DNA of 63,802 nucleotides, the filler included, from Collodictyon triciliatum (lineage: Eukaryota): assembly GCA_043381765.1 (NCBI GenBank). It is 45 parts of 45 records of this genome, joined end to end, with 100 filler letters (N's around TTAATTAATTAA, not from the genome) between each part and the next. Parts side by side here need not be neighbours in the genome. Positions count along the whole stretch, not along the records: positions 37,006 to 38,323 come from JBHJMP010011441.1; 44 more parts are not named here. One strand, 5' to 3'. Both the position numbers and the translations under genes were made by a program. This document shows, piece by piece, positions 24,213 to 56,630 of the stretch. Under the pieces are notes generated by a model. It had not been told where the DNA came from. It saw only the letters and a program-made list of their open reading frames with translations, and did not search any database. Within the stretch, counting starts at the first letter, position 1. Every line of letters starts with the position of its first letter.

Positions 24213-24275
<63 letters not shown>

Positions 24276-24295
24276 GAAGGGAAACAGAAACAAAC

Positions 24296-24580
24296 CTCCC
24301 ACTCCTGCTCCAAGGTCACTTTTGTCTTTTGCTGCTGCTGTTCTTGTTGTCGGGCGTCAAGGTCTTGGGGATCTGACCCTGCTGTTGCCGTCTTTGCTCC
24401 CACTTTTCCTCTTGCCTGTGTCTCGTCCTGGGTAAATTGTGTGTCGTTGAACTTGCGCGACCGGACATCCTGTGTCTCCACCTTCAGCCGCGTGAACTGG
24501 GAAAGCCAAACAGAACCGCCAGCCATAAAGAGAAGCAGAGGGATCCCAGCACGGAGGAATCTCGAGTCGCTTGTGCTCAT
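24296..24580 (-). CDS. COX16: Cytochrome c oxidase assembly factor COX16, exon 1
   Basis: FLRAGIPLLLFMAGGSVWLSQFTRLKVE...KVTLEQEWE, followed by a GT donor. Confidence 0.75.
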
Positions 24581-25134
24581 CCTCAAAGGCCTCTATTTTT
24601 ATTTTATTTTATTTTTTCTCTTTATTCGATCCAAATCAAAGATCTCTACTTTGCTTCGTCCTTCGCACTCACACGGAACAAATAAGAGGGGGAGGGGGTT
24701 AGGAGAAAAAGAAGAAGATGCTAGAGAAAGAAAGAAAGAGAAAAATAAGAGGTACAGCCTCCACGCTTACGGACAGGAAGGCCAGGGAGGGTGAGAGTGG
24801 TCGAGGAAGTAGAATACAGATGGAAAGCCAGCGGAAGGGAGAAGAAAAAGAAAGAGATCGATTAAGACAAGGATGAAGACTGGGTTCATTTTTGTGGAGC
24901 GTTTATCGTCTTCGTTGGGGGAGTGGCCTACGAGGCGGGCACAGCGGACGGCCGCAGGGGAAAGAGAGCGCGGCCGGAAGACGAGGGCAGGTGAAGAGCA
25001 TCAGAGGGGCGGGGGGAGAAGCGGGGATCAAAAAGGCGCGCTTAGAACAACGACACAAAGGAGGGTTGGAAACGAGGGCACCAGGAGAGGGTCCACCGGC
25101 AGGTGCGTGGGTGGGCGGGCGGTGGGGGCGCCAC

Positions 25135-25451
25135 TTATTCCTTCGGGGTCTGTGCAGCGGCAGCGGCAGGGGCAGGGGCGGCCGGCTTGGTGACGGGGAC
25201 GGCCTTCTTGATGGTCAGGGTGCGGCCTCCGACGACCACCTCCTGCAGCTTGTCGAAGGCGGCGTCGCGGGCGGCGGTGGTGGCAAACTCGACAAAGCCG
25301 AAGCCCTTGCTGCGTCCGTGGGGGCGGGTGGCCACGCGGCCGGAGACGGCGCTGAACTGCTGGAAGATGCTGACGAGCGTCTCGTCGTTGACCGAGAACG
25401 GCAGGTTCGCCACAAAGAACGCCTTTTCGTTGTCCACGCTGCACGGCGCCG
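25135..25451 (-). CDS. RRM RNA-binding protein, last exon
   Basis: RNP2 FFVANL and RNP1 KGFGFVEF; GC-rich codons. Confidence 0.9.
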
Positions 25452-25639
25452 CTTTCAGTGAATGCAGGGAGAAGGCGAGAAGGCGAGAGGAGAGAGGTGG
25501 CTTACTGGATCGGGGCAGGGCGCGGCGAGCGGGCACGGCNNNNNNNNNNNNNNNNNNNNNNNNNNNNNNNNNNNNNNNNNNNNTTAATTAATTAANNNNN
25601 NNNNNNNNNNNNNNNNNNNNNNNNNNNNNNNNNNNNNNN

Positions 25640-34778: not shown

Positions 34779-36173
34779 CTTCGAGAAACTTACACAAACT
34801 GAAGGGGAAAATGCTTTTGAGAGCGACCTATAATTGAGTATTTACCTTAACACAGCTAGGAGGCAAAAACGATTGCTACCGTTGGTTCTGCTGGGAATTA
34901 ATAGGATATTGAACCCTTCTGTCAGAAGGTTTTGAACTTTTACTTTGACATTAATGTTCAATAGTTCTTGTATAACTGGTTTATATTGAAAATTTTATGA
35001 GCTGGCCGGACAAAAGGACAAAACTAGAAAAGCTAAAATTTTATTGCAGCGCTTCACTCGAAAGCGCCGAAAGAAAAATTCCCAAGAGGTATGTACTCTT
35101 ATCGCCGCTATACACGAGCACCAATATTGGACAAAATAGACTCGATATTAAGTTTTAAGAAACGTGACGTAGTTCGACGTTGCAATTGCATCAAGGAACC
35201 AACAAGGTCGTTGACCTTTTTATGTGAAAAAAATAGCGTTAAGTTAGAATCACTCATCGCGGAGAAAAATTGTAACCCTGAAACGAATAAGTCTCCATAT
35301 AAGCAACTATGTTTCTTTTATTCTGTTATTCATTATTCTGTCTCATTGATTCTTTAATTCTTTGATTCTTTTATTATTCATTTATTCTTTATCATCATTA
35401 TTATCATCATTATTATCATCATTATTATCATCATTATTATCATCATTATTATCATCATTATTATCATCATTATTATCATCATTATTANNNNNNNNNNNNN
35501 NNNNNNNNNNNNNNNNNNNNNNNNNNNNNNNTTAATTAATTAANNNNNNNNNNNNNNNNNNNNNNNNNNNNNNNNNNNNNNNNNNNNTCGACAATCCATT
35601 TTCCAATGTGCATTCTCCAGTTTCTGATTGCAGAATTTCGGCCACTCTCCAACCGCAGCGACGCCGGACTTAGCACAAAGAGACGCATCCGTGCAGGTGA
35701 TTCAGGAAACCCACGAACATGCAGCAACTCCTCCGCACCAACGCGACTCATGTGGCCACCCCCAGTATTCCCAACCATATGGCAATTCCCAGGTCTTTGG
35801 TGACGCCCGGTGACGCACGCGACAAGCACCCGGCTATTCCCAAGACTTTCGATGCAAGAGGTCAACCTTGGCTGTGGCCAACCCCGAACCGGTGAATTTC
35901 CAAGGAAGCACAAGCACACAAGTTCTGCACAAGTCGTCTTCTCTGAAAAATCCGCCGGCCTTTGCGGGATATTTAATGTCGTCTTGTCGAAATCCTTGCT
36001 CCTCTTTTTTTATTCACAAAGTACTTTCTGATCTCCGTGTGCACAACCCACCGTCCTGACTCGAGTAATTCTGTCCTTTATGATTGTTAAGTCCACTCAT
36101 AAATCAAATAAATGATGTGTATTGTATTGACACCCAGCCAGTCTACCCATATATACAGCCGGAATCTGTCCAG

Positions 36174-36815
36174 ATGTCCGACTATCTCACACCTGCTCAA
36201 GTGGATGCGCTTTTGGAAGTTCGGAAACTCTCTGAGAAACCTGATATTGCCACTCTGAAAGGATCTACATATCTGAATCTCAGTTTCAAGAATCTGTCAT
36301 CTGTGCCGCCTGGTGTTTTTTTGTTGACTGGTCTGAAAGAATTGTGGCTTGATAACAATCAGCTGTCATCACTACCTGCACAAATATCCTGTTTGACTGG
36401 TCTCAGTATACTTGATGTTCGTGGAAATAAGCTGTCATCACTACCTGCACAAATATCCTGTTTGACTGGTCTCACATATCTTGATGTTAATGGAAATCAG
36501 CTGTCATCACTACCTGCACAAATATCGTGTTTGACTGGTCTCATAGAACTTTATGTTTGGTCAAATCCGGTATGTTTTTATTCATATATTATATTATATT
36601 TATGTTTAAAAGATAGTGACTGACAATGATACACACAGATGGAGGAGCTTCCAGCACAGATCACAGCCCTCACAAATCTGAAAAAACTCTGGATAAAATA
36701 TACATATACACAAACCATAAAGAGAGCCCCGCGTGGCATCTCCAATCTCCCCTGCTGGAACAACACAGGATACGAAGACAACAAACACATCCGCGCTCTG
36801 CAGCTCTACGACCCC
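36174..36815 (+). CDS. Leucine-rich-repeat protein, 5' exons
   Basis: 23-aa LxxLxLxxNxLSSLPAQISCLTG repeats encoded by near-identical 69-bp units; GT-AG intron about 36571-36638. Confidence 0.9.
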
Positions 36816-37005
36816 GTAAGCACACATCCACCCCCAACCCCCACATACACAACACAGGACACAACTAACATAACCCTAGGTCGAAACCGCAGCTGAAGCT
36901 AAAAANNNNNNNNNNNNNNNNNNNNNNNNNNNNNNNNNNNNNNNNNNNNTTAATTAATTAANNNNNNNNNNNNNNNNNNNNNNNNNNNNNNNNNNNNNNN
37001 NNNNN

Positions 37006-38323
37006 ACTCGCTATGCATGCACACAGGTCTATCAAAGAGCGACGCTGGCATTGTCCATGAGACTAACTGACAACTCCGTTCATGACATCACGTCAAAACC
37101 ACTGGCTGTATTTTCTGTACCCACAAGCCAGCAAAATATTTTGGCAATCAAAGACAAAACTATTCTTGAACCGACTGGTACATACTTTGGAACTGCTACA
37201 ATCACAGCCTCTTACGGCGATGCATCAGCTACAATAGACATCGTGGTCGCGGACGAAACTGTAAGCGCAACATCGCTAGCAACCGTATTTCCGTCAATAT
37301 ACACCGGTATCATTGGAACATCAACACAAAGCATCAAAGCGACTGCCGTGTTCCAAGATGGCACAAAACATCCAATCGCCCACACCATCACTGGGCTACT
37401 ATCTTACACCAGCGATGACCCGAGCTCAATAGCAATCGACACAGCAGGAACAGCCACTATACATGCGAATTCGAGAAGTCTTGTAAAGCTTACATCGTCA
37501 ACATGCTTTGGAGTCGTAGGAACGTCAAGCACCTATGCAAATCTGAGCCCGGATGTTGGTGATGTCGATATTGGAAGTACAAGCGGCCTTGCATTGAGTA
37601 ACATCGCAGTTGGGTCCAGCCTGACAGTTCCTGTTCGCGTCAACACGGGAACAAAGGCACTTGGAAGTCTCGATACTAGTCTTGTCTATGACGCAGACAT
37701 ATTCGATGTTACTTCATACAGCACTGGAAGTAGCTGGCCAGGAGGACAGTTAGAGATTACGCTAAACGACCCACCAGGGGTCATTCGCATTGTGGGAGCG
37801 ACAAGTGCAACCAGCAACTCAAAGGGCATGTTGGAGGTTATCAAGCTAGTCATCAGAAGTAAACAGAACGGAATATCACAGTTATCTGGCTTCATCACAA
37901 AGATGCTAGCTAACGATGCAACGTCTTCACCAATCGGAAGCACACTTGGACAAGGAGAGACAAAAGCAATAGTAGCTGGTAACGCCCCAGTAAAGAGCGG
38001 AACGGGCATCAAGTCTAGAGCTTCTTGGAGTAACGGAATGAATTTGGATGCGAGACATCAAAACATAACAGCAATACAACATGCTGGCAGAAAATCACAG
38101 ACATGTGACCCAGCTAGTATTCTCGGAAATACAGACGGAGACTGCGAATTCTCAGTCGGCGATGTCCAGTTTATATTGAGGCATCTAACTGGCATAGTCA
38201 CCACATCATTACAGCCCTACCAACTTCAATACTTGGATGCAGACAGAAATGGAAAGATTCAAGTACAAGATGCGATATACTTGATTCGAGTGCTGGCGAA
38301 CAAATGGCGATTCTTCAATGTCC
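37006..38323 (+). CDS. Internal part of a large extracellular protein: Ig-like (Big_2-type) domains, cohesin, type-I-like dockerin
   Basis: Cohesin-like VGSSLTVPVRVN..LGSLDTSLVYDADIFDV...GVIRIVG..GMLEVIKLVI (about 37600-37995). Dockerin-like GNTDGDCEFSVGDVQFILRHL...LDADRNGKIQVQDAIYLIRVL (about 38122-38313). Confidence 0.8.
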
Positions 38324-39024
38324 NNNNNNNNNNNNNNNNNNNNNNNNNNNNNNNNNNNNNNNNNNNNTTAATTAATTAANNNNNNNNNNNNNNNNNNNNN
38401 NNNNNNNNNNNNNNNNNNNNNNNATGTTTTCATGTTGCATTATTCAGTTTGCTTGGTCTTATGTTGATCGGTGGTTTTTTTTTTTGTGTTTTGTTAAAAA
38501 TAATGAGCGTCCAAGAAAAAGGGATTCAATAGATCAGTTGTGTTGTGCCGGTCTTTGGCTTTTGTTCTTGGCTGTCTGTGTGCTTTCGATGGTGGAGAAG
38601 TGCTTGTGAGTTGATCTTCTATATACACGGGTTTCTTTTTTTTTTTTTTTTTTTGTTTTTTTTTTTTTTTTTTTTTTTTTTGTTTACATCGAAAATGAGT
38701 CGGATTTTGGTAGAAAAAAAAAAGACATAGGTAAATTTAGTTTTCTTATTACAAATTTTAGTCGAGCAGAGAAATCCAAAGCAAAAATCATGAAAGTGAT
38801 GGACGGAGCGAAGGGGAAAAAATGGGGCTAGTGTCTTGGTTAACTGAATAAGCGGTTTAGTGACTATCTTGAAAGTAAATATAGCTAGGAATATGAAAAT
38901 GATTGCACATATTGCAAACCAATCCATCTCTTCCATAATATTATCAACTATTCATCGATTGGTCGATTTTTTTTTAGTAACGGCCTTTGAACAGAGGGAA
39001 ATATTGCAACTGCACATAATAAAA

Positions 39025-43009: not shown

Positions 43010-43998
43010 GATGAAATATCCGATCGTGGTTAATGCTTATTTACTGGGTAATATATTTTAAAGATCTTAGCATTTAATAATAATATTCGCAAAATTATGA
43101 TTTCGTTAATTACTTATTAACAATTCTAGGAATTATTTTTTTTGGCCAATTAATCTATGCCGAGGGACAAAACGACGTTATTCGCGCTATAATTAATCGC
43201 AACTATAGAGTTGTCAATGCTTCTAGTCCCCTTGTAGATTCTAAATTTGTTCCGGGAAGTGAGGATAAGACAATTAAACTATGGGGAGTTTGCAATCCAG
43301 GGTTCTACTTAGGAATATTTTGGTGCATTTCATGCCCAGCTGGTACATACAATCCGACAGTCGGCTCAACAAGCTCCAGTGCTTGTCTTTCATGTGCCGC
43401 TGGAACATACAATCAATTAACTGGACGAGCGAGTTGCTTTTCATGTGCAGCTGGTACGTACAATCCGACCGTCGGCTCAACAAGCTCCAGTGCTTGTCTT
43501 TCATGTGCCGCTGGAACATACAATCAATTAACTGGACAAGCAAGTTGCTTTTCATGTGCAGCTGGTACATACAACCCATCCATCGGCTCAACAAGCTCCA
43601 GTGCGTGCATTTCATGCGCAGCTGGTACATACAATCCATCAATCGGCTCTACGAGCTCTAGTGCGTGTATTTCATGTGCAACTGGAACGTACAATCAATT
43701 AACTGGACGAGCGAGTTGCTCATTATGTGCAGCTGGAACATACAATCCATCCATCGGCTCAACAAGCTCCAGTGCGTGTATTTCATGTGCAGCTGGAACA
43801 TACAACCCATCCATCGGCTCTACGAGCTCCAGTGCGTGTATTTCATGTGCAGCTGGAACATACAATCCATCAATCGGCTCTACGAGCTCCAGTGCGTGTA
43901 TTTCATGCGCAGCTGGAACATACAATCCATCCATCGGCTCTACGAGCTCCAGTGCGTGTATTTCATGTGCAGCTGGAACATACAATCCATCCATCCAT
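43010..43998 (+). CDS. Secreted Cys-rich GCC2/GCC3 (ephrin-receptor-like) repeat protein
   Basis: MKYPIVVNAYLLG|IIFFGQLIYAEG signal peptide, then CPAGTYNPTVGSTSSSACLSCAAGTYNQLTGRASC repeats (60/51-bp units). The true frame is absent from the ORF track. Confidence 0.85.
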
Positions 43999-55254: not shown

Positions 55255-55732
55255 GTGACAGAAGTGAGGCGAAAGCAGTTTGGACGAGTTCTGGGGGTTG
55301 TGTGGAGGGGTGGATTGGGTTGTGNNNNNNNNNNNNNNNNNNNNNNNNNNNNNNNNNNNNNNNNNNNNTTAATTAATTAANNNNNNNNNNNNNNNNNNNN
55401 NNNNNNNNNNNNNNNNNNNNNNNNTTTATTGTTTATTGTTTATTGTTTATTGTTTATTGTTTATTGTTTATTGTTTATTGTTTATTGTTTATTGTTTATT
55501 GTTTATTGTTTATTGTTTATTGTTTATTGTTTATTGTTTATTGTTTATTGTTTATTGTTTATTGTTTATTGTTTATTGTTCATTGTTCATTGTTCATTGT
55601 TCATTGTTCATTGTTCATTGTTCATTGTTCATTGTTCATTGTTCATTGTTCATTGTTCATTGTTCATTGCTGATTGTTTATTATTCATTATTCATTATTC
55701 ATTTTTTCCTTCGGAAATAAATTGTTTACATA

Positions 55733-56493
55733 CTTGAAGGGGAATCTATGTTCGATAAGTCCACCCTAAATATCCAAAGTCCTTGAATACCAACGTTAGA
55801 ATTAGAGGCTATCCATTGAACATTGTTTGTCATGGAATAAGGAAGACTGTAATAGTGGCTTCCATCTCCCGCATTAAACCCAGCTTGAGGGTATCCATTA
55901 GATTTTGATGTGACCCATTGAATGCCATTTGTGGGATACACAAGAAATGAAAAGGAGAACCTTCCATCGGTAATTATCACAGTTTGAAAAGAGTTTAGAA
56001 GATTCGTCATGGAAGAATAGTATCCTACTTGGTACCAAGTTGCCATGAAGGCTCGTGTGCCCTTCCAAGTAGAAAATCCATAATCTTTCATACCTTCGTT
56101 AATTAGCGTGTTAAAATTTGCTAACAAGGCTGATGATGACCCAATAGTCTCATAAAAAACGCGATTTTTTCCTGATCCTGCATTTCCTCTCGTATCGACG
56201 TCTGCCCAGAACGGTGCAATTAGAACTTTGGAACCGCTTATTGGAAACGACTCAGCTATGAAACTGGAAACTGGAGAATCAAACGAGATGAGTCCGTTAT
56301 TGTTTACGTAAAGATGGTTGAAAGTCGTTCCGTAGTAAGGAAATACAAATGATATTGGACTCGATGATGTGTCGTCTCCAGTGGCCATCGTCTTCGATTG
56401 GGGACCATCGAATGAAAACAGAGGGTATGCCAATACCAGGTCCAGGAGATAAAAACTCAAAAATATGTGGAATCGTAAATACTTTGATTCCAT
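55733..56493 (-). CDS. Secreted NIDO-domain (nidogen/alpha-tectorin-like) protein, exon 1
   Basis: Signal peptide; FPYYG...LYVNNNGLISF...IAPFWADVDTR...ATW..V...NSFQTVIITDG...IQW...AGFNAGDG...SNVGIQGLWIFRVD; ends at a GTATGT donor. Confidence 0.92.
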
Positions 56494-56630
56494 GTTTATT
56501 TACCTCCTGAAGTGGGGACTCGGTTGTTGCACCTCCTTACGTTTCGATATCGCCTGTCTAAATCGAGAGGTTAAGAAAAAATGAAAAGGGGAGAGGGGGG
56601 AGAGAGGAGAGAGGGAGGAGAGAGGAGAGG

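Follow-up and report, generated by a model that had tools for sequence, protein, structure and literature searches.

Cohesin and dockerin domains form one of the strongest non-covalent protein pairs known, and in cellulosomes such pairs act between chains. A stretch of 63,802 nucleotides from the protist Collodictyon triciliatum (assembly GCA_043381765.1; hereafter the window) contains, at 37,006–38,323 (record JBHJMP010011441.1), a reading frame in which an immunoglobulin (Ig)-like region, a cohesin and a dockerin follow one another in a single chain. This raises the question of what protein the frame belongs to, and of whether its cohesin and dockerin bind each other, within one molecule or between molecules. 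It also touches TMEM132 and the coherin-type cadherins, which are thought to be ancient adhesion molecules and for whose cohesin we know of no partner. The frame was found to be one copy of a conserved unit consisting of two Ig-like domains of probable Big_2 type, a cohesin, a linker and a calcium-binding dockerin, a unit that also turns up in giant adhesion proteins from protists, relatives of animals and myxobacteria. With moderate confidence, it is read here as an internal piece of a giant surface protein in which cohesin and dockerin would form a calcium-dependent joint in cis that is predicted to be cleavable in most eukaryotic relatives. Feature coordinates are collected in Table 1.

The window (1–63,802) is a pseudo-molecule of 45 unplaced contigs of 1312–1327 bp, arranged in falling order of length with 100-bp spacers between them. 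The spacer core TTAATTAATTAA, flanked by N44 on each side, occurs 44 times in the window (0.01 expected) in steps of approximately 1.41–1.43 kb. Genes that flank the cohesin-dockerin frame in the window are therefore not its neighbours. The leucine-rich repeat (LRR) gene on its left and the T-rich DNA on its right lie on other contigs and are thus uninformative about 37,006–38,323; findings on gene neighbourhood across any spacer of the window are unfounded. The initial annotation had described a 1.3-kb open frame and an open reading frame (ORF) starting at 37,051. The 1.3-kb open frame was recovered, as frame 1 of the contig is free of stops from the first base to the last over 439 residues (P0001, hereafter the query). 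The proposed start is an in-frame TTG and an arbitrary product of ORF listing, since the frame is open from contig base 1 and runs into the N spacer. Because the contig is the whole stretch and its frame is open at both ends, the query represents part of a far larger protein and not a whole gene. A complete small Ig-cohesin-dockerin protein was rejected on the same grounds.

The order of domains proposed in the initial annotation (Ig-like, cohesin, linker and dockerin in one chain) was borne out by Pfam, AlphaFold2, Foldseek and a family profile. The AlphaFold2 model of the fragment was built from 54 sequences and reached a mean predicted local distance difference test (pLDDT) score of 92.8 and a predicted template modelling (pTM) score of 0.85. 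It comprises three beta-sandwiches, a linker and a three-helix domain, with approximate limits as in Table 1, and the modelled domains match solved cohesins and dockerins. For the first two domains, Foldseek against the PDB returned Ig tandems of the LigA type (LigA 8gyr, E 3e-9). The query alone gave only Big-like in Pfam (E 0.42), and the family profile matched Big_2-bearing chains (9ifo_A, 1.9e-14; 2mog_A, 0.012; LigB 2mqg_A, 0.025), partly through columns upstream of the query. The N-terminal edge of the first sandwich may be cut by the contig end.

The third sandwich is a cohesin. It starts with a near-invariant family motif (N-L-x-P-x-V-G-D-V-D-x-G) and was modelled with a pLDDT of 96–98 over its whole length. 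Pfam Cohesin (PF00963) matched amino acids (aa) 199–310 with 39.3 bits (cut-off 24.1, E 9e-10) and was also found at E <= 0.01 in 33 of 51 shorter relatives. For the fold, a nine-stranded jelly-roll beta-sandwich as in solved cohesins was taken as criterion; structural matches were 3ul4_A (TM-score 0.74), 6kgf_C (0.73), 1ohz_A (0.72) and the archaeal 2xdh (0.71), a cohesin of Archaeoglobus fulgidus. Solved cohesins were matched by the family profile as well, at about 1e-3.

For the dockerin, a 12-residue calcium loop with D/N at positions 1, 3 and 5 and D at position 12, followed by a helix, was taken as criterion and was found twice. Both calcium-loop motifs named in the initial annotation are present, and their residues follow the dockerin/EF-hand pattern (N375, D377, D379, S383 and D386 in the first loop; D411, D413, N415, Q419 and D422 in the second). 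Helices were modelled at aa 384–395, 404–410 and 420–430. Single-sequence phmmer against PDB sequences gave no match; the profile of 54 sequences matched 20 chains with a dockerin (E < 1e-3), spanning both repeats in full, with 4fl4_A (2.2e-8), 2ccl_B (5.1e-8) and 1ohz_B (1.3e-7) as the best, each over 57–65 residues. Modelled alone (14 sequences, 74 residues), the domain reached a pLDDT of 93.0, and rows 1–31 of its Foldseek list were all dockerins (TM-score 0.75–0.80, root-mean-square deviation (rmsd) 1.6–2.1 Å), for example 4uyp_B (TM-score 0.75/0.76, rmsd 2.0 Å) and 2ccl_B (rmsd 1.6 Å). With so small a domain, the Foldseek E-values were modest (8.6e-3 at best). Pfam Dockerin_1 (PF00404) was found at E <= 0.01 in 13 of the 51 relatives and above its cut-off in 3, one of which was a second dockerin outside the module; it also exceeded the cut-off in P0020 (32.8 bits), P0030 (27.6) and P0059 (24.3). 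Searches of the query against NCBIfam gave no match, and the models of the second to sixth TMEM132 domains did not match the fragment at E <= 1. The nearest protein-atlas clusters, which serve as leads only, were exclusively bacterial Big_2, dockerin and cohesin clusters (0.86–0.92).

For the family census, 1.84 billion representatives were searched exhaustively with HMMER. This returned 535 proteins at E <= 1e-3, 292 at E <= 1e-10 and 62 at E <= 1e-30; a word-indexed homologue search found one protein of near length and five longer ones, far below this yield. In the best 155 of the 535 proteins, local phmmer gave 241 hits, 182 of which spanned over 300 of the query's 439 residues, and in 124 of these proteins a hit reached the dockerin end. 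The carriers are 2,000–8,000 aa long and contain one to four copies of the module, 1,400–2,700 aa apart and in some cases near-identical. The supposed rarity of such proteins in eukaryotes did not hold, given 535 representative relatives and given that most of the 156 inspected are not GC-rich; the eukaryotic nature of the top relatives was judged from domains and composition.

The domains of these relatives uphold the extracellular, adhesion-type setting that had been suggested for the cohesin-dockerin pair. TMEM132 Ig domains or cadherins are present in many of the 156. The closest relative (P0003, 2743 aa, 46% identity) consists of a TMEM132 fourth-domain Ig, the module, a REJ domain (170 bits), a GPS (42.6 bits, motif C-S-C-N-H-L-T), one transmembrane helix and an acidic, Ser-rich tail of 230 aa. 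P0027, P0028, P0030, P0032, P0040 and P0054 have TMEM132 Ig domains in addition to as many as 15 cadherin repeats, and TNFR, Kunitz, VWA, EGF or ankyrin parts occur in further relatives. Cadherin repeats were seen in relatives only, and P0003 has REJ/GPS instead.

Within the module, the calcium-loop columns are close to invariant. In up to 184 aligned copies, G374 is conserved in 99%, D/N375 in 100%, N/D377 in 96%, D/N379 in 99%, D386 in 99%, D411 in 98% and D422 in 100%; over all columns of the loop criterion, the D/N share is 89–100% in 169–184 copies. Cohesin and dockerin are adjacent and in a 1:1 ratio in every aligned copy. Near-invariant loops together with this constant adjacency indicate that plug and socket are both kept by selection. 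Cys380, in the first loop, is conserved in 87% of the aligned copies, and equivalents of both Cys367 and Cys380 are present in 116 of 159 modules; the two are likely a disulfide pair, judging from their conservation. Besides the loop Cys, cadherin-type relatives have three extra Cys before the dockerin, against one in the query clade and in the bacterial clade.

The linker was compared in 159 modules (118 proteins) in which both anchors were present, corresponding to query G325 at the cohesin end and G374 in the first dockerin loop. Its length is 25–73 aa (median 48). The motif R-x-[KR]-R occurs in 113 of the 159 modules, 85 of the 118 proteins and 111 of 155 distinct linkers; composition-preserving linker shuffles gave 21.9 ± 4.0 with a maximum of 34. 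Nearly all distinct linkers (146 of 155) contain a [KR]R pair. Within the same proteins, R-x-[KR]-R was counted 180 times in 7,630 linker residues and 63 times in the other 326,154 residues, equal to 23.6 versus 0.19 per 1000 aa (approximately 120-fold). The first site follows the last cohesin strand and ends at a median of 15 aa past G325. The second ends 4–8 residues before the conserved Cys in 86 of 139 linkers with Cys, and Arg is enriched at −4 to −8 before this residue. By these position criteria, 47 modules have sites at both places; counted separately by distance, two sites lie more than 6 aa from each other in 55 modules (median 20 aa). As sequence patterns, the motifs of the relatives fit a signature of processing by proprotein convertases (furin/kexin) with a spacer being cut out. 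No paper that links furin or other convertases with cohesin or dockerin domains was found among those searched, and a family-wide, putative convertase-site linker between cohesin and dockerin in the relatives would be new. In cadherin-type relatives (P0004–P0032), the three extra Cys (C-x-x-P-P-C-x-x-C) lie between the second convertase site and the dockerin.

The query linker contains 7 K/R/H versus 2 D/E in 39 aa. Its two basic clusters lie at both homologous places, KSR, whose end is 13 aa past G325, and RK at −5/−4 from the Cys; P0003 has a K-R pair before the Cys. Linkers of the bacterial clade are approximately 18 aa long (x-G-x-L-D-P-D-C...) and without convertase motifs, as read from the alignment, in which the regular expression had mis-anchored several rows.

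For the action of the module, the following sequence of steps is proposed. The protein would be a giant that is secreted or membrane-anchored at the cell surface. Each dockerin would dock on the cohesin of its own module, giving a calcium-dependent and mechanically strong joint. The linker would then be excised by furin/kexin-type proteases in most eukaryotic relatives, and the giant chain would consist of segments held together non-covalently at the cohesin-dockerin joints. In the query protein, with its degenerate basic sites, the joint would probably stay uncut and act as a rigid clasp in a stalk. Docking in cis is favoured because the distal part of the protein would be lost if unbound domains were cut apart, because the bacterial linker is short, and because the four-domain model has a high pTM; as a property of the model, this value hints at a fixed packing of the domains. 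Prediction of the complex of cohesin (aa 181–335) and dockerin (aa 366–439) gave 0.42, 0.20 and 0.18 for a mark of 0.34, without controls, and does not weigh on binding either way.

Alternatively, the cohesin of one molecule or segment could bind the dockerin of another, giving head-to-tail chains, cell-cell zippers, a coat or an adhesion polymer, with cleavage of the linker freeing both ends for re-plugging. Cellulosomal pairs work in this way and their solved complexes are among the structural matches, several modules are present per protein, and excision at two sites in the 55 modules would leave middle segments that are dockerin-first and cohesin-last, the geometry of a chain. We nevertheless consider assembly in trans unlikely: if the halves were unbound when cut, N-terminal parts of a membrane protein would be lost, the bacterial linker of approximately 18 aa without a cleavage motif suits a fixed arrangement within the module, and no copy seen departs from the 1:1 adjacency. 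Even less probable in our judgement is that the two domains do not bind each other at all, the dockerin being a calcium-stabilised spacer or having another partner and the cohesin binding a free dockerin-tagged protein or a glycan. Scaffoldins provide a precedent, as their dockerin differs in specificity from the cohesins alongside it in the chain, but strict co-inheritance and adjacency across bacteria and eukaryotes are hard to explain without a joint function, and cutting a linker between non-interacting domains would break the protein apart.

Several findings weigh against a cleavable cis joint in a giant surface protein of a eukaryote. PF00404 matched the query itself (aa 377–430) at E 0.023, its 15.3 bits falling short of the cut-off of 22.9. 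In the 1.3-kb contig, neither a start or stop nor a signal peptide or transmembrane helix was seen. The query linker has neither R-x-[KR]-R nor [KR]R and belongs to the 9 distinct linkers (of 155) that have no dibasic pair; cleavage of the query protein is therefore doubtful. Of the earlier proposal that the domains clasp after linker cleavage, the cleavage thus gains from the motifs in the linkers of the relatives and is not matched by the query's own linker. The basic charge could also serve otherwise, e.g. in glycan or charge interactions, and pTM is an indirect measure for docking in cis in a predicted model. The remaining points on this side concern the source of the contig, which is only 1.3 kb long, without linkage to host DNA and intron-free. 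In a quick maximum-likelihood tree of 73 module copies (unrooted), the query grouped with L002, P0003 and L001 (support 98), and this clade of four rows was sister (99) to a clade of 22 rows (100) comprising every copy labelled Myxococcota. Of the three clade-mates of the query, L001 and L002 lie on tiny contigs binned in a 'Bacteroidetes' metagenome-assembled genome.

Table 1. Positions in the window of the query contig, its domains and motifs, the adjoining spacers and two features of other contigs.
Feature	Position	Strand	Residues	Evidence or remark
Whole 1318-bp contig, single frame	37006..38323	+	439 aa (P0001)	both ends open
Ig-like beta-sandwich 1, probable Big_2 type	37006..37254	+	1–83	AlphaFold2 strands, Foldseek LigA 8gyr, family profile
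Ig-like beta-sandwich 2, probable Big_2 type	37261..37545	+	86–180	AlphaFold2, Foldseek, family profile
Cohesin domain	37555..37998	+	184–331	Pfam PF00963, Foldseek, conserved columns
Basic linker	37999..38115	+	332–370 (39 aa)	pLDDT 56–76
Linker basic cluster KSR	38011-38019	+	336–338	
Linker basic cluster RK	38089-38094	+	362–363	
Cys367	38104..38106	+	367	conserved in 74% of aligned copies
Dockerin (Ca loop 1, helix 1, helix 2, Ca loop 2, helix 3, conserved R-F 435–436)	38116..38313	+	371–436	
Ca loop 1, NTDGDCEFSVGD	38128-38163	+	375–386	contains Cys380
Ca loop 2, DADRNGKIQVQD	38236-38271	+	411–422	
Assembly spacer N44 + TTAATTAATTAA + N44	36906..37005	.		contig boundary, non-biological
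Assembly spacer N44 + TTAATTAATTAA + N44	38324..38423	.		contig end, non-biological
Six ephrin-receptor-like repeats	43084-43998	+		131 bits, separate contig
NIDO domain	55729-56499	-		163 bits, separate contig

The contig could accordingly stem from a bacterium that was present in the sample as prey, symbiont or contaminant and that, like Myxococcota, produces giant surface proteins with cohesin and dockerin. An alignment-seeded scan of one genome per prokaryotic species yielded 20 module loci, 13 of which are labelled Myxococcota, Myxococcales or Deltaproteobacteria. Copies among these 13 lie on contigs of 0.3–1.2 Mb and on a 9.3-Mb chromosome, in frames that are open for 4,400 to 14,117 aa; on the chromosome, more than 4,400 aa of open frame were seen in the fetched part and 14,117 aa in the genome search. 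The open frame of 14,117 aa, on the 9.3-Mb chromosome (L005, G002:C1, at approximately 2.83 Mb; L004), contains 35 EGF repeats and a laminin-G domain besides the module, a very eukaryote-like giant protein in a bacterium. Together with the sister position of the query clade, the filing of L001 and L002 and the unplaced, intron-free contig, these copies speak for a bacterial source.

A number of observations tell against it. The G+C content at third codon positions is 0.42 in the query frame, 0.23–0.38 in other frames of the window and 0.39–0.46 in L001/L002, versus 0.75–0.99 in the Myxococcota copies. The query linker is of the long eukaryotic type (39–48 aa) and not of the bacterial type of approximately 18 aa, and its basic clusters lie where eukaryotic linkers have them. 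The closest relatives have REJ/GPS/transmembrane parts, a long acidic tail and QS-repeat spacers, P0003 with its single helix and Ser-rich tail among them. The 'Bacteroidetes' bin (G001), which holds L001, L002, L027 and L028, looks mixed: its four module contigs (2.7–4.5 kb) have a GC content of 0.44–0.49 and are open end to end, 17 sampled contigs have 0.26–0.42, L029 carries a typical Bacteroidota secretion-tail gene, and L030 (9.7 kb) has no open frame longer than 170 aa. The other inspected contigs of the window are eukaryote-like, with NIDO, ephrin-receptor-like and RRM proteins encoded on them. On balance, the contig probably comes from a eukaryote, either the host or an associated one, and a bacterial source has little probability in our estimate.

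Both the query clade and the clade holding Myxococcota are nested among copies of the cadherin/TMEM132 type. Since the tree is unrooted, no claim is made on the direction of transfer between eukaryotes and Myxococcota. Tetranucleotide correlations of the contig (0.23 with the rest of the window, 0.29 with the sampled 'Bacteroidetes' bin and 0.55 with the module contigs) assign no source, and blastn of the window against 21 contigs of this bin found nothing shared. A QS repeat closes L002 and opens L028, and these contigs may be parts of one gene.

For comparison with sequencing runs, 4 of 24 listed runs were used; the 20 runs that contain query words each have less than 0.15 of them. Run X1 (apparently DNA, freshwater metagenome) gave one 211-nt contig and run X4 (RNA library) one 151-nt contig, both with 0 differences. 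A 775-nt contig of run X3 is colinear over 37,392–38,166 with 86 differences and 2 gaps and represents a relative. Run X2 gave 87 contigs of 85–99% likeness to the stretch, 10 at >= 99% identity, 22 at 95–99%, 41 at 90–95% and 14 below 90%. No joints were seen in the read contigs of the four runs. The matches show presence and many close paralogues or relatives; they do not bear on transcription, introns or host. Those of X2 point to many close paralogues or near-identical repeats, which may explain the break-up of the gene into 1.3-kb contigs.

Three further observations were made on other contigs of the window, in which an Rfam scan found no RNA family. NIDO and ephrin-receptor-like repeats are animal-type extracellular domains. 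A GC-rich contig (0.575) at 24,213–25,539 starts with a (CA)n/(TG)n run and has an RRM-type RNA-binding frame on its minus strand. On the contig preceding the query, the LRR frame at 36,168–36,650 is broken by an apparent short intron (gtatgt...acag), and the host therefore has introns.

For the window itself the result is modest, namely that the domains of a gene fragment, itself unplaced, were recognised correctly. For the family it reaches further. Outside vertebrates, a dockerin partner adjoins the cohesin and is conserved with intact calcium loops, and in most eukaryotic copies the linker between the two looks, from its motifs, made for excision. In PMC6030884 (Sanchez-Pulido & Ponting 2017), dockerin homologues are given as not detectable in vertebrates. 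If the proposed mechanism is true, it would provide a means of segmenting, stiffening or releasing giant surface proteins under force or at low calcium in protists and early animal relatives, and natural calcium-switchable eukaryotic cohesin-dockerin pairs for protein engineering. A wider proposal, which we regard as possible rather than probable, is that cohesin-dockerin is an ancient joint of eukaryotic giant adhesion proteins (coherin-type cadherins, TMEM132-domain and REJ/GPS proteins), folded in cis and with its linker excised by furin/kexin proteases. The segments of a 2,000–8,000-aa chain would then be held by calcium-dependent plugs that withstand high force yet can come apart, serving as a mechanical fuse or a re-pluggable connector; Myxococcota would share the unit by gene transfer, without the cleavable linker.

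Compared with known systems, the module is closest in fold to clostridial type I pairs (1ohz, 2ccl, 4fl4, 6kgc–6kgf, 3ul4). The cohesin fold is the same (TM-score 0.72–0.74), as is the dockerin fold with two calcium loops and three helices, with profile homology down to 2e-8. Unlike in clostridial cellulosomes, the two domains stand 1:1 in one chain, in giant adhesion-type proteins with no enzymes and no scaffoldin logic. The Cys pair C367/C380 is an addition, the linker of the relatives is predicted to be convertase-cleavable, and binding is here a prediction from sequence. Cases of cohesin and dockerin in the same protein, and eukaryotes, were reportedly listed by Peer et al. in 2009. Non-cellulosomal modules are another likeness; according to PMC9012536, cohesin and dockerin occur outside cellulolytic organisms and sometimes in one protein. 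Neither a fixed Big_2-Big_2-cohesin-dockerin unit that repeats in giant proteins nor a convertase-site linker was found in the papers searched.

Cohesin domains have been described in the coherin, lefftyrin and hedgling cadherins of choanoflagellates and sponges and in TMEM132 (PMC6030884). The relatives of the query likewise join cadherin repeats, TMEM132 Ig domains and a Pfam-type cohesin in giant proteins. The fragment itself, however, matches no TMEM132 model, and its cohesin is a classical PF00963 and not the TMEM132 'third domain'. No paper describing a dockerin in coherin-type cadherins was found among those searched. With Polycystin-1 and other REJ-GPS receptors, P0003 shares REJ, GPS and a transmembrane helix. 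Unlike Polycystin-1, it has one such helix and no channel domain, and the fragment ends before this region and is linked to it by kinship only.

Nicked, non-covalent joints are known from surface receptors, namely Notch S1 (furin, calcium-dependent heterodimer), GAIN/GPS and SEA. By analogy, the joint proposed here would follow the same logic of a cut in the secretory pathway, with the halves held by a pre-formed interface that bears or senses force. Unlike in those receptors, the interface would be cohesin-dockerin and two sites would excise a spacer, sites that are degenerate in the query. As to kind, the query falls among the non-cellulosomal cohesin-dockerin proteins or the coherin/TMEM132-type giants, and it belongs to a widespread, little-described family.

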